Positions 790-18,790 of a stretch of DNA of 64,000 bases are shown in pieces. The stretch comes from Escherichia phage vB_EcoM_CRJP21. The position numbers were made by a program, and so were the translations under genes. The stretch lies in the sequence record OQ708376.1; one strand, 5' to 3'. The notes under the pieces are model-generated. The model was not told where the DNA came from and ran no database searches. It saw only the letters and a list, made by a program, of their open reading frames with translations. Every line of letters begins with the position of its first letter. Positions within the stretch are counted from its first letter, which is position 1.

Positions 790-910
790 AGTAAAGATGG
801 CTATCCATCTAGACGGCTAAACGGCTAGATTTCTGGATGGCTGGATGGCTAGACGTTTGGACGGCTAAACGGCTAGATGGTTACACGTCTGGAAGTATAG
901 ACGGCTAAAT
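790..910. repeat. iteron-like cluster (GACGGCTAAACGGCTAGAT x2, GGATGGCT x3, TCTGGAAGTA x2)
   Basis: short direct repeats in non-coding DNA. Confidence 0.6.
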
Positions 911-1080
911 CAAAATTTTATTTTGTTTTTTCCAATAGTTCCCCTACCGCGTGGGGATAGTTTCCCCGCAGTATCTGGTGTTAGATTTTTCTGAATCTGG
1001 AATCATTATCTTATAAACTGGGGGCAATGTCAACGGCCTGGCCGGATATTTTTAAAAATTTTTTCAGTACTGAATTTTGG

Positions 1081-1145
1081 GCGTAACTATGCACCCGGTG
1101 GGCTTGAGTCTTTCTCGACTTGATGGAACTATTATACAGTACTGG
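1081..1145. repeat. R1 element copy 1 (GCACCCGGTGGG...CTTGATG...CAGTACTGG)
   Basis: about 60-bp element recurring at 3246 and 4778. Confidence 0.5.
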
Positions 1146-1536
1146 AAAAATAAAGCAATACCCTGGAAGCAAAAAAGTTTTAATTAATTTGCTTGCTATC
1201 CTGGGCCGGACTATGGTACTATATTTCAGTACTGAGAAAGTGCGTTTACCTGCTAGGGTGCGGGAGTGTATCCTTTTTTTATATCTTGAATTTTGGACGG
1301 ATCTTCCCACCCCCTGGGGTATCCGCTTTCTCGCGTCTATGTAGTAATTATACGCTTTTTCAGGATCAAGTCAATACCTAAAAACAAAATAATTGAAAAT
1401 AATTTAACGCGTTTAAACGGCCTGTAAAGCCCTGGAATGATTGGAATGGTGCAAATGTATAGCTTATGTGTATTAATGCGTTAGAATGCGTCTGAGGACG
1501 TTTTACGGGGTATAGGGATGATTTAGTGGATTGATT

Positions 1537-1624
1537 CAGTACTGAATAATAGTACTCCTATATAGAAAGATAGTTCCCCTGGATGATTGCAGTACTGAAT
1601 AATAGTACTCCTATATAGAAAGAA
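1537..1624. repeat. tandem direct repeat of a 34-bp unit (CAGTACTGAATAATAGTACTCCTATATAGAAAGA)
   Basis: two copies spaced about 54 bp. Confidence 0.6.
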
Positions 1625-1654
1625 AACTATTTTAAAAGTATTTGTAGAAAGTAC

Positions 1655-1682
1655 TTGCACCGTACTGATAAAAGCGTATAAT
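1655..1682 (+). promoter_or_regulatory. sigma70-like promoter (TTGCAC, 16 bp, TATAAT)
   Basis: consensus-like -35/-10 upstream of first gene. Confidence 0.6.
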
Positions 1683-1696
1683 GTTTTACATCGAGA

Positions 1697-1713
1697 GCGG
1701 GAACACTTCCCGC
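1697..1713 (+). promoter_or_regulatory. palindromic leader hairpin/operator GCGGGAA-cac-TTCCCGC
   Basis: first of about 20 similar GGGGAA-nnn-TTCCCC palindromes placed just after promoters. Confidence 0.55.
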
Positions 1714-1737
1714 TACACATTAAGAGAGATTAAAACG

Positions 1738-2100
1738 ATGGCGACTCAAATCAATAAAATCATGCTTAACCTGGTAAACTTCCGCGATGAGATGAAAGGT
1801 CTTCCGGCTGAAACTGTAAAAATTCACATTGCAGCTTATCGGGAACTTATTGCAATGTTGCCGCTTAAGCGTGAACAATACGCCGCTACTTTGATGCTGG
1901 ATTCAATGATCCATATAATGATCTCAAATGATTTGACGATGGTTTATCAGTATATGGGCGAAAATTTCGCGGTGTGTAGTAAGCCAGTACCAGGGATGGC
2001 AACAACTGAGGAATTGCACGGCTTAAACTTAAAACAAGATGCATGGGATAATATGCCTCGTTTCCTGGTATGGGCTGACAGTGGCAAAATTTACAAATAA
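1738..2100 (+). CDS. hypothetical protein (120 aa)
   Basis: track ORF restarted at internal ATG downstream of promoter and hairpin. Confidence 0.6.
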   Translation: MATQINKIMLNLVNFRDEMKGLPAETVKIHIAAYRELIAMLPLKREQYAATLMLDSMIHIMISNDLTMVYQYMGENFAVCSKPVPGMATTEELHGLNLKQDAWDNMPRFLVWADSGKIYK

Positions 2101-2114
2101 GTTTAATAAAGTAC

Positions 2115-2142
2115 TTGCAAACTATGTTTAATGGCGTATAAT
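2115..2142 (+). promoter_or_regulatory. sigma70-like promoter (TTGCAA, 16 bp, TATAAT)
   Basis: AAAGTACTTGCAA...GCGTATAAT consensus of this region. Confidence 0.65.
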
Positions 2143-2193
2143 GTTTTACATCAGGTGGGGAATAGTTCCCCACTATATAAGAGGATTAAAAAA

Positions 2194-2433
2194 ATGGCTA
2201 AATCAAAAATGTTCTTAGGTCACAAAAACAAAACTCATTGGAATGTAAGCCTTTGGATTAATAACGATGAGGGATTGTATCGGTTGGCCCAGGACTTTAT
2301 TAACGATAGCACTAATCGCAATGATGCGGCCCGTCATATGATGTTATTTTTAGAACAGACTGGACAAGATAAAACACCGGACGGATTCAAATATAGCACT
2401 ACTGCGATCCGTGCGGCGATGGTTGGAATGTAA
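2194..2433 (+). CDS. hypothetical protein (79 aa)
   Basis: internal ATG after promoter, hairpin 2156-2173 and RBS. Confidence 0.6.
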   Translation: MAKSKMFLGHKNKTHWNVSLWINNDEGLYRLAQDFINDSTNRNDAARHMMLFLEQTGQDKTPDGFKYSTTAIRAAMVGM

Positions 2434-2519
2434 TAGAATTTATTTAAAGTACTATCATTTTTTTGCGATAGTACTTTATAATAGTGTTTTATTCATACAC
2501 CAACGATAAGGGCAACAGC

Positions 2520-2786
2520 ATGAAAATTAAGTATTTTGCGACGCGTGAACAAGCTCGGATCGCCGCACGCCAGGACGGGGCAACGTTTAAAGATATGGGC
2601 GTACAATCGGAACGTGGTAAACGTTGGGCCATTGTAAAGCGTAGTACCGCCAGATCATTACAGTACTGGTTAGCGGCCTTAAAAAGTCCCGATAGTGTAT
2701 CGCGTCGAGTGGTAGAAATAAAGCTCGACCGAAAGGGCAACCGCGTGACCGTGTACCGTACTAAAAAGATTGCAGTACTTGAATAA
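2520..2786 (+). CDS. hypothetical protein (88 aa), paralog of 14497..14892
   Basis: shared KYFATREQARIAAR and DRKGNRVTVY motifs; RBS TAAGGG. Confidence 0.6.
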   Translation: MKIKYFATREQARIAARQDGATFKDMGVQSERGKRWAIVKRSTARSLQYWLAALKSPDSVSRRVVEIKLDRKGNRVTVYRTKKIAVLE

Positions 2787-2793
2787 AAAGTAC

Positions 2794-2821
2794 TTGCAAA
2801 CTATGTTTAATGGCGTATAAT
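2794..2821 (+). promoter_or_regulatory. sigma70-like promoter (TTGCAA, 16 bp, TATAAT)
   Basis: near-identical to promoter at 2115. Confidence 0.65.
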
Positions 2822-2873
2822 GTTTTACATCGAGAGCGGGAACTCTTCCCGCCTATAACCTGGAGTAATGAAA

Positions 2874-3104
2874 ATGACTAATATGTATATGACTGAAGTT
2901 AAAACCGTAAAAGATACTACCACGAATAAAACTACTTACTTACAGCGGATCTGTGGTGTATGGCAACGTATCAGCAAATCAAAGTACTTTAAATTAACAT
3001 CATATGCAAACCGTTCGGATTCATTCAGTACTGAAATAAAAGGTAATAAAGTACACCAATACGGCACTTATTATTATTATAGCCTGGACGCGATTGCAGT
3101 ATAA
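2874..3104 (+). CDS. hypothetical protein (76 aa)
   Basis: ATG 8 nt after GGAG; hairpin 2836-2852. Confidence 0.55.
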   Translation: MTNMYMTEVKTVKDTTTNKTTYLQRICGVWQRISKSKYFKLTSYANRSDSFSTEIKGNKVHQYGTYYYYSLDAIAV

Positions 3105-3186
3105 GCAGTTTACAAATCTTTACAATTGCCGGTATTGACTTATTTTGTCAGTACTGGCATAATGTATTCATTGGCAGATAAGCCGT

Positions 3187-3214
3187 AGCCCATAGGGTGC
3201 GGGAGTGTATCTAT
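3187..3214. repeat. R2 motif copy (AGCCCATAGGGTGCGGGAGTGTATCTAT)
   Basis: about 28-bp motif recurring at about 9172, 13194, 16469, 18721. Confidence 0.55.
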
Positions 3215-3245
3215 AGAAAAATTAGTTTAGTATAGTTACAATTGT

Positions 3246-3303
3246 GCACCCGGTGGGTTAGCTGTTGTCATGGGGTATATTATACCAGTACTTGATAATG
3301 CTG
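3246..3303. repeat. R1 element copy 2
   Basis: matches 1081..1145 and 4778..4833. Confidence 0.5.
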
Positions 3304-3354
3304 TCAATACTTTTTTTTTACTATTCAGTACTGAAAACTATTTTTAAAAAGTAC

Positions 3355-3382
3355 TTGCAAACTATGTTTAAAGGCGTATAAT
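3355..3382 (+). promoter_or_regulatory. sigma70-like promoter (TTGCAA-TATAAT), upstream member of tandem pair
   Basis: consensus boxes. Confidence 0.6.
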
Positions 3383-3389
3383 GTTTTAC

Positions 3390-3465
3390 ATCAGGACGGG
3401 GAACGAAATAAGTAACTTCCCGTTAAGTAGCCCAGGAGTAAGGCACACGAAAAACTCCCCTGATA
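3390..3465 (+). ncRNA. candidate structured leader / small RNA (copy 1)
   Basis: about 75-nt element with two imperfect hairpins between tandem promoters; second copy at 13300..13375. Confidence 0.35.
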
Positions 3466-3472
3466 AAATAGT

Positions 3473-3500
3473 TTGACAAATGTTTTTAAAAGCGTATAAT
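3473..3500 (+). promoter_or_regulatory. sigma70-like promoter (TTGACA, 16 bp, TATAAT)
   Basis: consensus boxes, proximal to gene 3533. Confidence 0.6.
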
Positions 3501-3532
3501 ACTTACATCAACTACTGAATGAGGGTTACAAA

Positions 3533-4144
3533 ATGAAAACTATCACTACTACTACTTATGTTATGGCTTTTTCTGAATTGAACGCAGAACAACAAACGTC
3601 AGCTATCGAACTGGTTCGGGAACGTGAAAAAAACTCAAACGACAATTATTTTTCTGAAAGTGAAATTGAATACTATAAAGAAACAGTACTACCGGAATAT
3701 GGCATTAATGACGCTGAAATACAATTCAGTGGTTTTTGGTCCCAGGGTGACGGTGCATCAATCAGTACTGACCACGTTGACGCAGTGAAGTTTTTACGCA
3801 AGGTAAGAGCATTAACTAAGTATCGCTCAATCCGTCACTTGCTGAATGAAGATGATTTGGCGATGAGTGTAAAACGTTCGCACTCCCACTACTCGCATGA
3901 GAATACTGTAAGCGGGTACATTGAATCGGCTTACACTGATTTAACCGCAAAACAAGAAACGTTAGTTAATGAGCTTGAGGAACTACTCACTGAAACTATT
4001 CGTGAATTGTCCCGCAAGTTGTACCGTGATTTAGAGAATGCATATGAGGATCAATTCACTACTGAAAACATTACGGCACTGATTGAGGGTAACGAATATC
4101 AATTCAATGTTATTGATGGCGTAGTAGAATCAATCGAATATTAA
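3533..4144 (+). CDS. hypothetical protein (203 aa)
   Basis: track ORF; RBS GAGGG 7 nt upstream. Confidence 0.7.
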   Translation: MKTITTTTYVMAFSELNAEQQTSAIELVREREKNSNDNYFSESEIEYYKETVLPEYGINDAEIQFSGFWSQGDGASISTDHVDAVKFLRKVRALTKYRSIRHLLNEDDLAMSVKRSHSHYSHENTVSGYIESAYTDLTAKQETLVNELEELLTETIRELSRKLYRDLENAYEDQFTTENITALIEGNEYQFNVIDGVVESIEY

Positions 4145-4156
4145 TTTAAAAAGTAC

Positions 4157-4184
4157 TTGCAAACTAAGTTTAAAAGCGTATAAT
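4157..4184 (+). promoter_or_regulatory. sigma70-like promoter (TTGCAA, 16 bp, TATAAT)
   Basis: consensus boxes. Confidence 0.6.
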
Positions 4185-4236
4185 ACTTTATATCGAGAGC
4201 GGGAATAGTTCCCGCTACTAATGAGGAATACTACAA

Positions 4237-4401
4237 ATGAATACTTTTACCTTCGCTCAATTGAACGCCCTGGATGTATTGTCTGATGCTTTGCGGGATG
4301 CAACTGAAAGCGGTTTATTTGACAATGTTGACATTCACCCTGATGTAATTAATAATTTTTGTGATGCTATCGCAGAAGTACTGGAAGATCTAAAAAAATA
4401 A
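4237..4401 (+). CDS. hypothetical small protein (54 aa, not in ORF track)
   Basis: hand translation MNTFTFAQLNALDV...; promoter + hairpin + RBS upstream. Confidence 0.55.
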   Translation: MNTFTFAQLNALDVLSDALRDATESGLFDNVDIHPDVINNFCDAIAEVLEDLKK

Positions 4402-4411
4402 TAGAAAGTAC

Positions 4412-4439
4412 TTGCAATTAGTTTTCAGTACTGTATAAT
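4412..4439 (+). promoter_or_regulatory. sigma70-like promoter with extended -10 (TTGCAA ... TGTATAAT)
   Basis: consensus boxes. Confidence 0.65.
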
Positions 4440-4489
4440 GGTTTACATCAAAGGGAGAAATGGTTCTCCCTGGTAATGAGGAAAATACA

Positions 4490-4711
4490 ATGGCTAATAT
4501 CACTACTCTTTCCCAACTGGAAGCACTGGTTAAATCTATGCGGGAACATGCTGACAAAATCGGCGTACAAGATCCAGCCGTTTGCTTCTGCGACGAATTG
4601 AATGATGATACCCTGGTAATAGCAGAAGTCCAGGACGTTTCTAACTATTCCTCGCGTTACACTGGCGGCGTAGCAAATAAAGGTGACTTCTGTTTATACC
4701 TTACAAAATAA
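4490..4711 (+). CDS. hypothetical protein (73 aa)
   Basis: internal ATG after leader hairpin 4453-4470; track start lies inside the hairpin. Confidence 0.6.
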   Translation: MANITTLSQLEALVKSMREHADKIGVQDPAVCFCDELNDDTLVIAEVQDVSNYSSRYTGGVANKGDFCLYLTK

Positions 4712-4712
4712 C

Positions 4713-4748
4713 AACGCGGGGAGATAATAACTCCCCGTTACTTTTTCA
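4713..4748 (+). terminator. rho-independent terminator (GC stem + T-run)
   Basis: CGGGGAG-ataataa-CTCCCCG then CTTTTT. Confidence 0.6.
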
Positions 4749-4777
4749 GTACTGAATCATTTAATAGACGGATCTCG

Positions 4778-4833
4778 GCACCCGGTGGGTTAGTGACTGT
4801 TTCGTCTTGATGTAGTAATTATGCCAGTACTGG
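4778..4833. repeat. R1 element copy 3
   Basis: GCACCCGGTGGGTTAG...CTTGATGTAGTAATTATGCCAGTACTGG. Confidence 0.5.
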
Positions 4834-4954
4834 ATGCACTTGTCAACAATTATTTTCCAAATACTTTTTATTAAAATACTTGCAATTAGTTTTTAAACGC
4901 GTATAATGTTTTGCATAGGGGGAGCGGTTCCCCTGGTAACTAAGGAATAATAAA

Positions 4955-5191
4955 ATGCTTGAACAAATCAAATCAACGTCTTCGAATGTAACGGGAACGG
5001 TAGCACACTTTACTAGTGATGAATCGCGGGGCGTTCCCTATTGTGCTGTACATGTAAACACTGAGGGTAACTACTGGTTTACGGTTTACGGATCATATTC
5101 ATTTGGACGGCCTGGACATCAAAAAATTCTGGATAAAGTACAACCAACGGGTAAAAATATCACTGCCGAAATGTTTTATAAAAAATCATAA
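4955..5191 (+). CDS. hypothetical protein (78 aa)
   Basis: track ORF; promoter + GGGGAGCGGTTCCCC hairpin + RBS. Confidence 0.65.
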   Translation: MLEQIKSTSSNVTGTVAHFTSDESRGVPYCAVHVNTEGNYWFTVYGSYSFGRPGHQKILDKVQPTGKNITAEMFYKKS

Positions 5192-5275
5192 AGTACTTGC
5201 AATTAGTTTTTAGTACTGTATAATATTTTACATCGCAAGGGGAAACGGTTTCCCCTGGTAACTAAGGATAATCAA

Positions 5276-5575
5276 ATGAAAATTGCAATCATCGCCCTGG
5301 CTTTATCTGTTTCCTCTTTCGCTGTTAATGCGTCATTAGATGTAAGTAGTGAAAAATTCATTCAGTGCACTGTTGCAATGACCGATGAAAGAACTGGCGA
5401 GATTGTATTAAAGGATTTAGAGATCCAGCCGGAAGCATTTAAAAACGGCCCGTTCCATGAAGAAGACGAAAACGGTAGCACGACAATTTATTATGATGCC
5501 AGTACTAAACGCGGTTCGGTCACTGTAATGGATACCGAGAAAGTAACTCATACCGGCGTTATTAATTGCCGTTGA
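5276..5575 (+). CDS. small secreted/periplasmic protein (Sec-type signal peptide)
   Basis: N-terminus MKIAIIALALSVSSFAVNA with AxA-like cleavage site. Confidence 0.6.
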   Translation: MKIAIIALALSVSSFAVNASLDVSSEKFIQCTVAMTDERTGEIVLKDLEIQPEAFKNGPFHEEDENGSTTIYYDASTKRGSVTVMDTEKVTHTGVINCR

Positions 5576-5596
5576 TAGATACTACGGGGTAACATC

Positions 5597-5827
5597 ATGA
5601 CTAAGCGAATTGTTTTACTTAACGAAAGCAGTACTACACAACTACTTAACGCCGTGCATTATGATATTGAAACGAGCGTTAATCTTATCAGTACTGTAGT
5701 TCTGTTGGACACTGGAAAGGTAGCCAATGATAAAGCGATTGCAGGTATACTAACGGATCTTGTGCCTGGTAGCAGTGCACCAATAACGTTAAATGGTAAA
5801 GTGTTTAATATTTTACTCACTGATTAA
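5597..5827 (+). CDS. hypothetical protein (76 aa)
   Basis: track ORF followed by terminator. Confidence 0.55.
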   Translation: MTKRIVLLNESSTTQLLNAVHYDIETSVNLISTVVLLDTGKVANDKAIAGILTDLVPGSSAPITLNGKVFNILLTD

Positions 5828-5833
5828 GTACAT

Positions 5834-5857
5834 AGCCCACCTGGTGGGCTTTTTTGT
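5834..5857 (+). terminator. rho-independent terminator
   Basis: AGCCCAC-ctg-GTGGGCT + TTTTTTG. Confidence 0.7.
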
Positions 5858-6060
5858 TTTTGTAGTATCGTAGTACTGAGATACTTTGAAAATAGTTTTA
5901 AAAAAGTAGTTGACATTACCACAGAAAAGCGTAGAATGTATTACATCAAGACGGGGAGCACTAAGTAGACCGCCAGTAAGTCGAACGAAAAACTGGACAC
6001 GTCGAGAAAACTTTGATACACTAATAAACGTAAACTAAACTTTAATTGAGGATTTATAAA

Positions 6061-6543
6061 ATGGCTAATGTAAAATCATTCATCAAAGCACTGGTAGCAA
6101 ATGAAACTAACGTCGCGGCTGAGATCCTGGCTGAACTGGATAACGATACCATGAAAGCGGTACGCAACAATTTTAACATTGCGTACAGTGAAGCTAAAGA
6201 ACTGCAAGCCAAAAAGGTAGCAGAACTGGAAGAACAGAAAAAAGCCCGTGAAGCAGAACTACAAGCAACAATTGAAAGTATTCAGGCGGCAGTGTCTGGA
6301 TTGGATCTGGAAGTGGTTGTAGAAATGGCACATAAAGCCCTGGCGGTTAAGTACGGTGAAGATAAGCCGGAATCTAAACCTAAAAAATGGATTCAAGAAC
6401 GTGTTACTGTAGTACTTGATAACGGTGAAGAACATTTGATTCCTGTACGCGGTAACTGCATTGCGGTAGTACTGGACGCTATCAAAGAAAGCGGTATGAC
6501 TCGCGAGGAATGGATCGAAGCTCATCGCAAAGTTGAAGCATAA
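6061..6543 (+). CDS. hypothetical protein (160 aa)
   Basis: ATG 8 nt after GAGGA; promoter TTGACA/TAGAAT at about 5908-5936. Confidence 0.65.
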   Translation: MANVKSFIKALVANETNVAAEILAELDNDTMKAVRNNFNIAYSEAKELQAKKVAELEEQKKAREAELQATIESIQAAVSGLDLEVVVEMAHKALAVKYGEDKPESKPKKWIQERVTVVLDNGEEHLIPVRGNCIAVVLDAIKESGMTREEWIEAHRKVEA

Positions 6544-6564
6544 CAATTAAAGTACTGAATCACT

Positions 6565-6592
6565 AGCCCACCTTAAACAGTGGGCTTTTTTG
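6565..6592 (+). terminator. rho-independent terminator
   Basis: AGCCCAC-loop-GTGGGCT + TTTTTT. Confidence 0.7.
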
Positions 6593-6610
6593 TGTCTGTA
6601 GTATTCCAGT

Positions 6611-6680
6611 CCACCAGCACCGCCTAGAATCGATTCTAACGCATTAAACTGATTATCTGATACATCGCCCTAGCTGGTGG
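6611..6680. repeat. inverted Chi-like octamer pair (CCACCAGC ... GCTGGTGG) flanking inverted R4 motif
   Basis: direct read. Confidence 0.55.
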
Positions 6681-6828
6681 CGTTAAGGTCGTTAGAATGC
6701 GATTGAGAGCGTTTAAAGTATTTTGCAAAAAGTAATAAAAAGTACTTGCACGATTAAGAGATTAGCGTATAATGTTTTACATCGAGAGGGGGAAACGGTT
6801 CTCCTTCCAAATCAAAGGAATCAAAACA

Positions 6829-7056
6829 ATGGCTATTATCATTACTCGCGTATCTGGTACTACTGGCAACGAACAAGTAGTTGCAGTCATTACTAACAAG
6901 GCAGGTGCGGAATTGCAAAATGCAATGAATACCTGGGCCGTTAATGAGTTCGGTCAGTGGGCAAGTGTAGCATACATTGAAACCTATCAAGTGCCGTCGA
7001 TTAGTTTAACTGATTTGGGCGTTGAGCGTATCCTTTGCCTGGATGAATTAAATTAA
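6829..7056 (+). CDS. hypothetical protein (75 aa), MAII-start paralog group
   Basis: internal ATG after promoter and hairpin; N-terminus resembles 7143 and 10054 genes. Confidence 0.6.
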   Translation: MAIIITRVSGTTGNEQVVAVITNKAGAELQNAMNTWAVNEFGQWASVAYIETYQVPSISLTDLGVERILCLDELN

Positions 7057-7142
7057 AAAAAGTACTTGCAAAGTAAATCGAATAAAGTATAATACATTAC
7101 ATCAAGGGGAGAAATGATTCTCCCCACTACAAGGAAACTAAA

Positions 7143-9110: not shown

Positions 9111-9202
9111 AAAAAGTGGTTGACTTCGGTCAGCCATTTTGTTATTATATATTCATTGAGAGATAGCTCACTAGCCCACAGGGTGCAGGAGTGTATCTAT
9201 TG
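9111..9202 (+). repeat. intergenic cassette copy A: hairpin-embedded promoter (R3) + R2 28-mer
   Basis: TTGACT-17-TATTAT inside inverted repeat, then AGCCCACAGGGTGCAGGAGTGTATCTAT. Confidence 0.55.
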
Positions 9203-9320
9203 TATGAGTATTGAGTACTGAAAACTATTTTTAAAAAGTACTTGCAAACTATCTCAATAAGCGTATAATGTTTTACATCGAAAGGGGAAACGGTTTCCCC
9301 TGGTAATAAGGAAACAAATC

Positions 9321-10779: not shown

Positions 10780-10874
10780 ACTATTGACAATATCATCAAG
10801 TACTGGCATAATACTTACATCAAGACGAGAACGTCACTAACCCATAGGGTGCACAAATGTAACTGTATAATATT

Positions 10875-10905
10875 GATCAAAAAATGATCTGATCAATACT
10901 TGATC
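10875..10905. promoter_or_regulatory. cluster of four GATC sites (three TGATCA palindromes) in 31 bp
   Basis: direct read; intergenic. Confidence 0.5.
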
Positions 10906-13137: not shown

Positions 13138-13234
13138 AAAAAGGGATTGACTCCGGTCAGTCCCTTTGCTATTATATACGCATAGAAACAAATCAGCCCA
13201 CAGGGTGCATAAATGTATCTATTGTTTGCTGGTG
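13138..13234 (+). repeat. intergenic cassette copy B (R3 hairpin-promoter + R2) followed by Chi octamer 13227-13234
   Basis: near-identical to copies at 9111, 16409, 18667. Confidence 0.55.
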
Positions 13235-16408: not shown

Positions 16409-16498
16409 AAAAGGGATTGACTCCGGTCAGTCCCTTTGCTATTATATATTCATTGAGAGATAACTCACTGACCCATAGGGTGCGGAAGTGTATCTATT
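16409..16498 (+). repeat. intergenic cassette copy C (R3 + R2)
   Basis: near-identical to other copies. Confidence 0.55.
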
Positions 16499-18666: not shown

Positions 18667-18790
18667 AAAAGGGATTGACTCCGGTCAGTCCCTTTGCTAT
18701 TATATACTCATAGACAAAAACTAGCCCACTGGGTGCAGGAGTGTATCTAAAATATATAGTTAATAACGGTGAGTAACTATCTGCTGGTGG
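18667..18790 (+). repeat. intergenic cassette copy D (R3 + R2) followed by Chi octamer 18783-18790
   Basis: direct read. Confidence 0.55.

Follow-up and report, generated by a model that had tools for sequence, protein, structure and literature searches.

A 64,000-nt stretch of Escherichia phage vB_EcoM_CRJP21 (OQ708376.1; the whole stretch is called the window here) carried near its start a repeated element in non-coding DNA. A first-pass annotation of the letters alone had described this element, R1, as three or four 60-bp copies that ended in a -10-like box and might represent another class of promoter or a protein-binding module. Seen from the opposite strand, R1 belongs to a family of 11 modules, each with a strong host-type promoter predicted to drive a structured RNA.

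Positions 900–5000 of the window were 99.2% identical to 908–5008 of Escherichia phage fEgEco12, and 87–98% identical to other Asteriusvirus jumbo phages (121Q, PBECO4, phAPEC6 and G17). The fEgEco12 genome has direct terminal repeats of 20,993 bp, verified by PhageTerm and by restriction digests/mapping, and its record begins at the physical left end (PMC13070987). Since the window matched this record with an offset of ~8 bp, it starts ~8 bp inside the left end of the genome and, as judged from this alignment, is the left end of an Asteriusvirus genome. The repeat would then end at ~21 kb of the window, and the module family would fill it. GC content was 38.1% in the first 21 kb versus 32.3% beyond, and no tRNA or tmRNA genes were found in the window.

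The R1 copies proved real. The 12-mer GCACCCGGTGGG occurred exactly, on the plus strand, at 1091–1102, 3246–3257 and 4778–4789; with up to two mismatches it gave 12 matches in the window against 0.40 expected, and none of 100 shuffled sequences reached 12. The degenerate copy placed near 1296 was genuine as well (copy d in Table 1), and a repeat finder independently grouped 1080–1135, 1296–1351 and 4767–4822 as one family (D7). The alignable part of the copies spanned ~80 bp, with the -35 box at one end and the RNA tail at the other, and thus more than the proposed 60 bp and well past the AGTACT and -10 parts to which, it had been cautioned, their likeness might be confined.

A covariance model was built from 72 copies and run, with filters off, on all 64 kb. 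As shown in Table 1, it found 10 full copies (38.6–60.5 bits) and one diverged copy, all 11 within the first 19 kb and on both strands. From 19 to 64 kb no match exceeded 15.4 bits or fell below E = 0.4, and the remaining matches overlapped no module. The four copies noticed earlier were exactly the four full minus-strand members (cores at 1102, 1318, 3257 and 4789; copies a, d, b and c, respectively). The full plus-strand members are named here by their core positions (3189, 9175, 10841, 13197, 16472 and 18725); copy 3189, next to copy b, had been missed.

Table 1. Modules of the family in the window, with predicted promoter and RNA parts. Descending coordinates are read on the minus strand; the consensus column gives matches to the 12 positions of the sigma-70 consensus.
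Feature	Extent	Strand	Model match	Bits	-35 box	-10 box	Consensus	Predicted +1	P1 or leader	Core	Tail and beyond
Copy a	1080..1158	-	1075-1129	40.1	TTGCTT 1158..1153	TATAAT 1136..1131		A ~1124	P1 AGUC/GACU (1120-1117/1110-1107), loop GAGAAA	CCCACCGGGTGC 1102..1091	ATAGTTACGCC 1090..1080
Diverged copy	1193..1280	+	1221-1277	20.6 (E = 0.017)	TTGCTA 1193-1198	TACTAT 1217-1222		1228	P1 GUAC/GUGC 1229-1243	CCU-GCUA-GGG-UGC 1249-1261	GGGAGTGTATC 1262-1272; then C and a T7 run 1274-1280
Copy d	1296..1374	-	1291-1345	38.6	TTGACT 1374..1369	TATAAT 1352..1347, no TG	11/12	~1340	P1 CGC/GCG, loop GAGAAA	CCCAGGGGGTGG 1318..1307	GAAGATCCGTC 1306..1296
Copy 3189	3135..3211	+	3163-3216	43.1	TTGACT 3135-3140, within hairpin CCGGTATTGAC/GTCAGTACTGG	TGn, CATAAT 3158-3163		A 3170	P1 (U)GGC/GCC(G), loop AGAUAA	CCCATAGGGTGC 3189-3200	3201-3211
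Copy b	3235..3307	-	3230-3284	39.7	TTGACA 3307..3302, 17-nt spacer	TGn, TATAAT 3284..3279	12/12	~3272	A-rich leader without P1 (CAUGACAACAGCUAA)	CCCACCGGGTGC 3257..3246	ACAATTGTAAC 3245..3235
Copy c	4767..4846	-	4762-4816	49.3	TTGACA 4846..4841, 17-nt spacer	TGn, CATAAT 4823..4818	11/12	A 4811	P1 GAC/GUC, loop GAAACA	CCCACCGGGTGC 4789..4778	CGAGATCCGTC 4777..4767
Minus face of bidirectional intrinsic terminator (scan finds both strands)	4705..4738	-									CGGGGAGUUAUUAUCUCCCCG, then CGUUGUUAUUUUG
Copy 9175	9120..9197	+		54.1	TTGACT 9120-9125, in terminator hairpin 9113-9140	TGn, TATTAT 9143-9148		A 9155	P1 UGAG/CUCA	CCCACAGGGTGC 9175-9186	9187-9197
Copy 10841	10784..10863	+		43.9	TTGACA 10784-10789	TGn, CATAAT 10807-10812		10819	P1 GACG/CGUC, loop AGAA; fold shows P1 and P2	CCCATAGGGTGC 10841-10852	10853-10863
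Copy 13197 (P1-less subclass)	13147..13219	+		53	TTGACT, in terminator hairpin 13140-13167	TATTAT 13170-13175		13182	Leader AUAGAAACAAAUCAG	CCCACAGGGTGC 13197-13208	13209-13219
Copy 16472 (best-scoring of the window)	16417..16494	+		60.5	In terminator hairpin 16410-16437	TATTAT 16440-16445		16452	P1 UGAG/CUCA	CCCATAGGGTGC 16472-16483	16484-16494
Copy 18725 (P1-less subclass)	18675..18747	+		49.7	In terminator hairpin 18668-18695	TATTAT 18698-18703		18710		CCCACTGGGTGC 18725-18736	18737-18747

Read on the minus strand, the R1 copies followed one order: TTGACA/TTGACT (TTGCTT in copy a), a spacer of 16–17 nt ending in AGTACTG(G), TATAAT/CATAAT, 5–6 nt, CAT..., ~20 nt, CCCACCGGGTGC and an 11-nt tail. 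The plus-strand ATTATAC/ATTATGC is the reverse complement of (G)TATAAT/(G)CATAAT, and the TTGACA/TTGACT/TTGCTT box lies 16–17 bp farther right. The -10 box and the link to a promoter were thus correctly noticed at first, but strand and layout were not: the promoter points leftward, AGTACTG lies in its spacer, and the GC-rich 12-mer taken for the start of the element belongs to the transcribed part, at ~+16 to +35 of the predicted transcript. Copies b and c carried AGTACTGG, the TG of which provides an extended -10.

Instead of a new class, the promoter had the ordinary sigma-70 consensus (TTGACA/T, a 16–17-nt spacer and TATAAT or CATAAT, with TGn ahead in most copies). The window copies matched this consensus at 9–12 of 12 positions. 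TG at -15/-14 was present in eight of the ten full copies, b and c included, and absent in a and d; the predicted +1 was A in nine of the ten. Across eight genomes, 79 of 86 copies matched at least 9 of the 12 positions, 67 had TTGAC(A/T) and 66 had a 17-nt spacer. By its -35 box, spacer, -10 box and TGn, the module promoter is predicted to be a sigma-70 promoter of the extended -10 type.

The anatomy of the RNA motif was derived over 120 distinct copies. The first ~48 nt of the predicted transcript comprised a hairpin (P1), a linker nUAR, a mini-hairpin or core CCC-AYA-GGG-UGC, and an 11-nt tail nnAnnUnYRYC, usually followed by UAU. The core, of 12 nt, was nearly invariant. P1 had 4 bp of freely variable sequence (GCCA/UGGC, GGAG/CUCC, UCCA/UGGA, AGCA/UGCU, CAAA/UUUG and others) closing an A-rich loop (GAGAAA, GCGAAA, AGAACAA or AGAUAA). 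Both sides of this helix had changed in 24–37 sequences, at all four pairs, and its covariation score was 0.419 versus 0.162 ± 0.012 in shuffles, none of 500 of which reached it; controls with slid partners gave at most 0.138. A subclass, to which copies b, 13197 and 18725 belonged, had an A-rich single strand in place of P1. Two As at -10/-9 relative to the core were retained in ~90% of the copies, in both subclasses.

P2, the helix within the core, paired R-CCC with GGG-U around the loop AYA (UAUA/UAGA in Eneladusvirus). Its inner pair was C-G in 117 copies and U-A in three, with no mismatches, giving three compensatory changes; its closing position was always a purine (A in 74, G in 46) facing an invariant U. 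An invariant G followed P2, and then C in 106 of the 120 copies. In a mutual-information scan of these copies only P1, the inner P2 pair and subtype correlations within the tail stood out, and the tail covaried with no upstream position. A long-range helix between leader and tail, predicted for several single sequences, was rejected as a feature of the family.

The covariation of P1, the -1 purine opposite an invariant U and a YRYC tail that fits G-U wobble all point to selection on the transcript, not on duplex DNA. Also, the spacing between -10 box and core varied by ~7 nt, which is more in keeping with an RNA element than with a DNA site in fixed phase. It is unlikely on these grounds that the module is an operator or roadblock at the DNA level, where the 12-mer would be bound in the duplex by a phage or host protein that shuts promoters or blocks elongation, and P1 would be an unrelated stabiliser. 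The 12-mer is indeed near-invariant amid drifting surroundings, CCC-N3-GGG is a short dyad, and the three C-G to T-A double changes would keep that dyad too; but the core is asymmetric, with UGC and the tail conserved on one side only, its orientation relative to the promoter is constant, the -1 purine and the tail make sense as A-U/G-U pairing with the invariant U and Gs, and the variable spacing leaves no fixed helical phase with the promoter. Of the protein-binding module proposed for R1, the core as a binding site may hold, with the pattern of variation favouring a site on the RNA.

The family extended well beyond the window. A 61-nt query from copy 16472 matched 70 phage records and reached all RaK2-like genera; among the records were Asteriusvirus, Alcyoneusvirus (RaK2, K64-1 and Muenster), Mimasvirus (CBB and GAP32) and Eneladusvirus (Serratia BF, Yersinia fHe-Yen9-03/04 and Erwinia pEa_SNUABM), together with Salmonella Munch/7t3 and Klebsiella fENko-Kae01. 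Several of these matches fell under annotated terminal repeats, and in the most distant genera (the Erwinia and Serratia phages) only core and tail matched, with ~92% identity. With the covariance model, seven fetched terminal-repeat regions held 7–13 copies each, and 86 copies were found in eight genomes, 58 on the plus and 28 on the minus strand. A pattern scan of 2.9 million IMG/VR contigs matched 12, of which seven were jumbo-sized (346–378 kb, RaK2-like) and five were shorter metagenomic contigs (6–109 kb); the matched loci held 39 further copies. The complete 352-kb relative ECO103 4-12-1, in which the repeat was assembled once, had nine full copies and one weak copy in a single 19-kb block, and its remaining ~333 kb gave only one match of 20 bits (E = 0.15).

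The motif was invariant in phages of Escherichia, Klebsiella, Salmonella, Cronobacter, Pectobacterium, Serratia, Yersinia and Erwinia, and the transcribed core was better conserved between genera than the promoter. Rfam 15 gave no matches at gathering score on the 64 kb, and at E ≤ 5 none in 1–20 kb that overlapped the transcribed motif. When the searchable literature was queried in full text with the core 12-mers, the only matches were unrelated ones of the primer type, and the genome papers of CBB and fEgEco12 describe RpoD-like promoters and the terminal repeat, not the module motif (PMC13070987 for fEgEco12). As far as these searches reach, the family occurs only in the terminal repeat of RaK2-like jumbo phages, has been kept in four of their genera and belongs to no known RNA family. 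What we regard as new is the clade-specific structured RNA motif; the phage early regulatory cassette itself is classed as a known kind.

Plus- and minus-strand copies stood in different surroundings. The -35 TTGAC lay within a stable hairpin (≤ -8 kcal/mol), the terminator of the upstream gene, in 46 of the 58 plus-strand copies and in none of the 28 minus-strand copies. Among lone plus-strand copies (those outside pairs), an open reading frame (ORF) followed within 400 nt in 36 of 43, usually after a second promoter of the main type (AGTACTTGCAA, N16, TATAAT) and with a ribosome-binding site (RBS) ahead of it; downstream of copy 9175, for example, a second promoter (TTGCAA..TATAAT, 9242–9269) preceded an ORF. 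Copy 18725 was the last ahead of the presumed end of the terminal repeat. Thirty-nine of the 43 had no terminator within ~170 nt of the module end, so that their RNA would have to be processed or else serve as a leader.

The minus-strand copies were followed by no RBS-preceded ORF. Twelve of the 13 lone ones had no downstream ORF at all, and in 10 of the 13 a terminator-like hairpin with a U tract lay 11–30 nt past the module; in the window, where this was checked, the hairpin was the reverse side of a bidirectional terminator belonging to a plus-strand gene. At copy c the terminator (4737..4717) began 29 nt beyond the module, and promoter and terminator together define a predicted non-coding RNA of ~105 nt (4811 to ~4705), antisense to the 3′ end of the plus-strand gene 4460–4711. 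The marks of an independent small-RNA gene (a promoter, no ORF and a terminator within ~150 nt) were found together at copy c and at 10 of the 13 lone minus-strand copies. Copy a was a lone minus-strand copy facing the left genome end, 1.1 kb away, with neither a downstream ORF nor a predicted terminator. The diverged copy, unlike most lone plus-strand copies, had a putative terminator of its own, as a small-RNA gene would: its GGGUGC..GUAUCC and U run resembled an intrinsic terminator (terminator-like match at 1255–1274 plus TTTTTTT). A coding explanation was rejected: mechanical ORFs overlap the copies, but the motif is conserved in both orientations and with changes in P1 length.

Two convergent pairs were present in the window, the diverged copy with copy d (1256 plus/1318 minus) and copy 3189 with copy b (3189 plus/3257 minus), with 45 nt between the cores in both. 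The same geometry, with 14 nt between model ends, was found in CBB, GAP32, Serratia BF and Yen9-03, and other pairs were 25–36 nt apart. In each of CBB, Serratia BF, Muenster, fENko-Kae01 and the window, one pair was located ~1 kb from the left end of the genome. In coliphage 186, pR and pL are face-to-face promoters whose transcriptional interference serves a developmental switch between alternative gene sets. The module pairs likewise set strong promoters head-on, with predicted starts ~110 bp apart (1228/1340 and 3170/3272), but no obvious gene belongs to either module, and the two share one RNA motif.

An arrangement of small hairpin RNAs just past early promoters recalls HK022 putL/putR and lambda nutL/nutR, which are promoter-proximal RNA elements for processive antitermination. 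As there, the modules follow promoters for the host polymerase in both directions of transcription, and the A-rich P1 loops (GAGAAA, GCGAAA) loosely recall boxB loops. The module might accordingly be a cis-acting leader, modifying the polymerase for terminator readthrough in a put/nut-like manner or protecting the 5′ end of an mRNA. It is promoter-proximal with two small hairpins, it occupies both orientations as putL/putR do, and the plus-strand copies begin exactly at a terminator, stand upstream of genes and mostly lack a terminator of their own; genes and terminators lie downstream of them. We nevertheless give this explanation a low probability. The lone minus-strand copies are geneless and mostly stop shortly before a terminator-like hairpin, the opposite of what an antiterminator needs, and genes downstream of plus-strand copies usually own a stronger promoter between module and ORF. 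There are ~11 modules per repeat, not two. No boxA-like sequence was seen in the consensus, and homology to HK022 put was rejected: in HK022 the family model gave only a noise match, of 10.7 bits and within coding sequence.

Among described entities, the PeSL (promoter-early stem-loop) cassette of T4-type phages comes closest; in it a stem-loop terminator can overlap the -35 box of a strong sigma-70 promoter, and small ORFans of a plastic region lie alongside (Arbiol et al. 2010, PMC2839356; Comeau et al. 2014, PMC4122927). Recombination between PeSL copies is held to shuffle the genes that they flank and to form mini-circles. The modules share with it repeated intergenic units of ~100 bp, a plastic and ORFan-rich early region in a large myovirus and a near-consensus sigma-70 promoter. 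Overlap of promoter and terminator was found in plus-strand modules and not in minus-strand ones, all four R1 copies included. A PeSL closes with the Shine-Dalgarno sequence and the start codon of the gene that follows, whereas modules end in a non-coding motif, and the plus-strand ones reach an ORF only after a second promoter. Further differences are the conserved ~48-nt non-coding RNA motif, of which PeSLs have no counterpart, the third of the modules on the non-coding strand, the convergent pairs at fixed spacing, and the restriction to the terminal repeat, in four genera. That the family is purely a mobile cassette of the PeSL type, repeated for the expression of small early genes and for shuffling by recombination and yielding a functionless transcript, agrees with the published plus-strand architecture and with the truncated relics clustered at the left end (tail-only fragments at 722–764, the diverged copy at 1221–1277), which hint at turnover, but is very improbable given that 28 of 86 copies face away from any gene and that the transcribed core outdoes the promoter in conservation across genera. 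A role in recombination may well exist alongside an RNA function, without explaining the core.

Some observations weigh against the reading favoured below. P2 has only 4 bp and competes with an alternative helix, P3, formed by GGUG(C) and (G)YRYC. P3 is mutually exclusive with P2, is pairable in 90% of cells with one-sided variation, and forms the terminator-like hairpin of the diverged copy, ahead of its U run; a U run also followed the tail in GAP32 copy 17321. Either P2 or P3 may form, and the fold of the core is ambiguous. Folding energies of single sequences were ordinary (z = -0.2 to -2.3, the value of -2.3 being that of copy a, whose fold held P1 and a GGGUG/CGCCC hairpin), so that covariation, not energy, makes the case for RNA structure. 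The palindrome-like CCC-N3-GGG could serve as a DNA site too, the start sites and RNA ends of the modules are predictions, and most lone plus-strand copies lack a terminator. No binding partner or target of the module RNA was identified, and the reverse complement of the core occurred in the window only at partner modules. On balance we hold with high confidence that the anatomy is a promoter plus an RNA motif.

The reading that we moderately favour, at somewhat better than even chances, is that the modules produce immediate-early short RNAs whose core is the recognition site for a factor. By analogy with the related phages CBB and PA5oct, early transcription is assumed to come from the terminal repeat. 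In PA5oct the 39-kb terminal repeat is transcribed early and two abundant RNAs, ncRNA001 and ncRNA002, make up 2.4–5% of phage reads (Lood et al. 2020, PMC7318152). This distant relative is likewise dependent on the host polymerase and has its non-coding RNAs in the terminal repeat, but these come from one locus each, of 236 and 451 nt. In the PA5oct terminal repeat the family model found nothing (best match 13.9 bits, E = 0.68), and homology to these RNAs was rejected, leaving an analogy only.

Upon DNA entry, host RNA polymerase would fire the ~11 copies in each of the two terminal repeats, the strong sigma-70 promoter of each module starting a transcript with A. The four minus-strand R1 copies would yield short non-coding RNAs, not mRNAs. 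The RNA of copy c would stop at the back face of the bidirectional terminator, and copies b and d would be transcribed head-on into their convergent partners. The plus-strand copies would start inside the hairpin of the upstream terminator and place the same RNA at the 5′ end of the new transcript, before the second promoter. The near-invariant core is most likely an RNA recognition site for a trans-acting factor, which would be conserved across Enterobacterales hosts or within the phage clade. Twelve nucleotides conserved across genomes that can otherwise no longer be aligned imply a specific molecular partner, and their invariance in phages of eight host genera suggests that this partner is itself conserved.

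Because of their high copy number and strong promoters, the modules may have a stoichiometric role (as a decoy or sponge) or serve fast accumulation, and would then act as multi-copy immediate-early decoy or effector RNAs. A trans-acting small-RNA function is a tentative proposal, to which we give about one chance in three. Slightly less probable still is the full form of this idea, a clade-wide effector RNA whose core titrates a conserved host factor (e.g. a defence sensor, ribonuclease or RNA chaperone) or reprograms the transcribing polymerase, with ~20 genes per genome fired by host polymerase as the terminal repeat enters the cell. If true, it would be an RNA-based device for host takeover or anti-defence of a kind not described for terminal-repeat early regions.

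RaK2-like jumbo phages (121Q, PBECO4, RaK2, GAP32, CBB, fEgEco12 and others) are in development for therapy, and most of their genes are annotated as hypothetical. In the literature we found no study of how their early program works and no transcript data for them. The modules offer a handle on this program, namely a conserved RNA motif with predicted start sites, present ~10 times in the part presumed to be expressed first, and the identity of its partner could expose a new step, based on RNA, in taking over the host or evading its defences. In current annotations spurious small ORFs lie over modules, an error that the covariance model would correct. One is probably CBB_7, a hypothetical coding sequence (L001 3793–3966, minus strand) lying directly over a convergent pair with cores at 3818/3886.

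Other identities were tried for the module and rejected. There was no match to a tRNA, tmRNA, ribozyme, riboswitch, CRISPR repeat or other Rfam family. A solitary RNA resembling a CRISPR repeat had no Rfam CRISPR-DR match, and the conserved core differs in stem and loop; the likeness of copy 16472 to the type I-F repeat (15 of 28 positions) lies in the variable P1 and linker. By eye, the core offered only an ACC-loop variant of Chi (6 of 8), a DnaA box at 7 of 9 that lacks the conserved T and does not fit the CATA variants, and a GAAA tetraloop receptor with too short a 3′ strand.

Palindromes such as AATGAGAATGATAATGATTCTCATT were present between the convergent modules of RaK2, Muenster, Serratia BF, Yen9-03 and fENko-Kae01 but absent from the window pairs. 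Sites were located in L005 (RaK2) at ~6945–6975, in L006 at ~2415–2450, in L003 at ~1030–1050 and in L007 at ~1030–1060. They resemble the Fur box consensus.

The palindrome AGTACT occurred 254 times in the window versus ~22 expected, and 129 times in the first 21 kb versus ~6.5 expected; the 8-bp palindrome CAGTACTG occurred 62 times versus ~0.7. The latter was found within the spacers of promoters, fused with the -35 box in the main class (AGTACTTGCAA), and in many cases 10–25 nt past modules of the R1 family, frequently as TTCAGTACTGAA. The AGTACT palindrome looks like a binding site or a motif selected in its own right.

From 1635–7111 onward (e.g. 2095–2160, 2774–2839, 3335–3400 and 4137–4202) the main early promoter cassette made up another repeat family, larger than the first, with 11 copies in the first 8 kb (family D1). 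Its order was AAAGTACTTGCAA, N16, TATAAT, GTTTTACATCGAGAG, a GC-rich hairpin (e.g. GCGGGAAC..TTCCCGC), an RBS and a small ORF, and it was PeSL-like.

E. coli Chi, GCTGGTGG, occurred nine times on the plus strand of the first 21 kb (590, 6673, 10498, 11960, 13228, 15578, 16983, 18560 and 18783) versus ~0.1 expected, and was absent from the other 43 kb; minus-strand sites were at 578 and 6611. An inverted pair (CCACCAGC acaa GCTGGTGG) at 578–597 formed a hairpin ~0.6 kb from the genome end. This enrichment suggests that the linear genome ends are protected from RecBCD.

Just past module 10841, at ~10870–10905, four GATC were clustered in ~35 bp (TTGATCAAAAAATGATCTGATCAATACTTGATCAA). Elsewhere GATC was under-represented (133 in the window versus ~194 expected).

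At 712–764, tandem fragments GGATTTTGGGCGTAGTTAC and GGATTTTGGGCGTAGATAT were the reverse complement of the end of copy a, its tail plus CAAAAT (ACGCCCAAAATTC). Without core or promoter, they look like remnants left by the turnover of modules at the left end. Direct repeats with an 8-bp period (GGATGGCT, AGACGGCT and AAACGGCT) lay at 779–906, in the gene-free first 1.5 kb by the genome end; this iteron-like block could be a signal for packaging, injection or replication. At 937–959 the plus strand read AGTTCCCC, N8, GGGGATA, which on the minus strand is a leader-type hairpin downstream of a promoter at 1033..1005. Its outer 15 nt and spacing are those of the E. coli type I-E CRISPR repeat, perhaps by coincidence.

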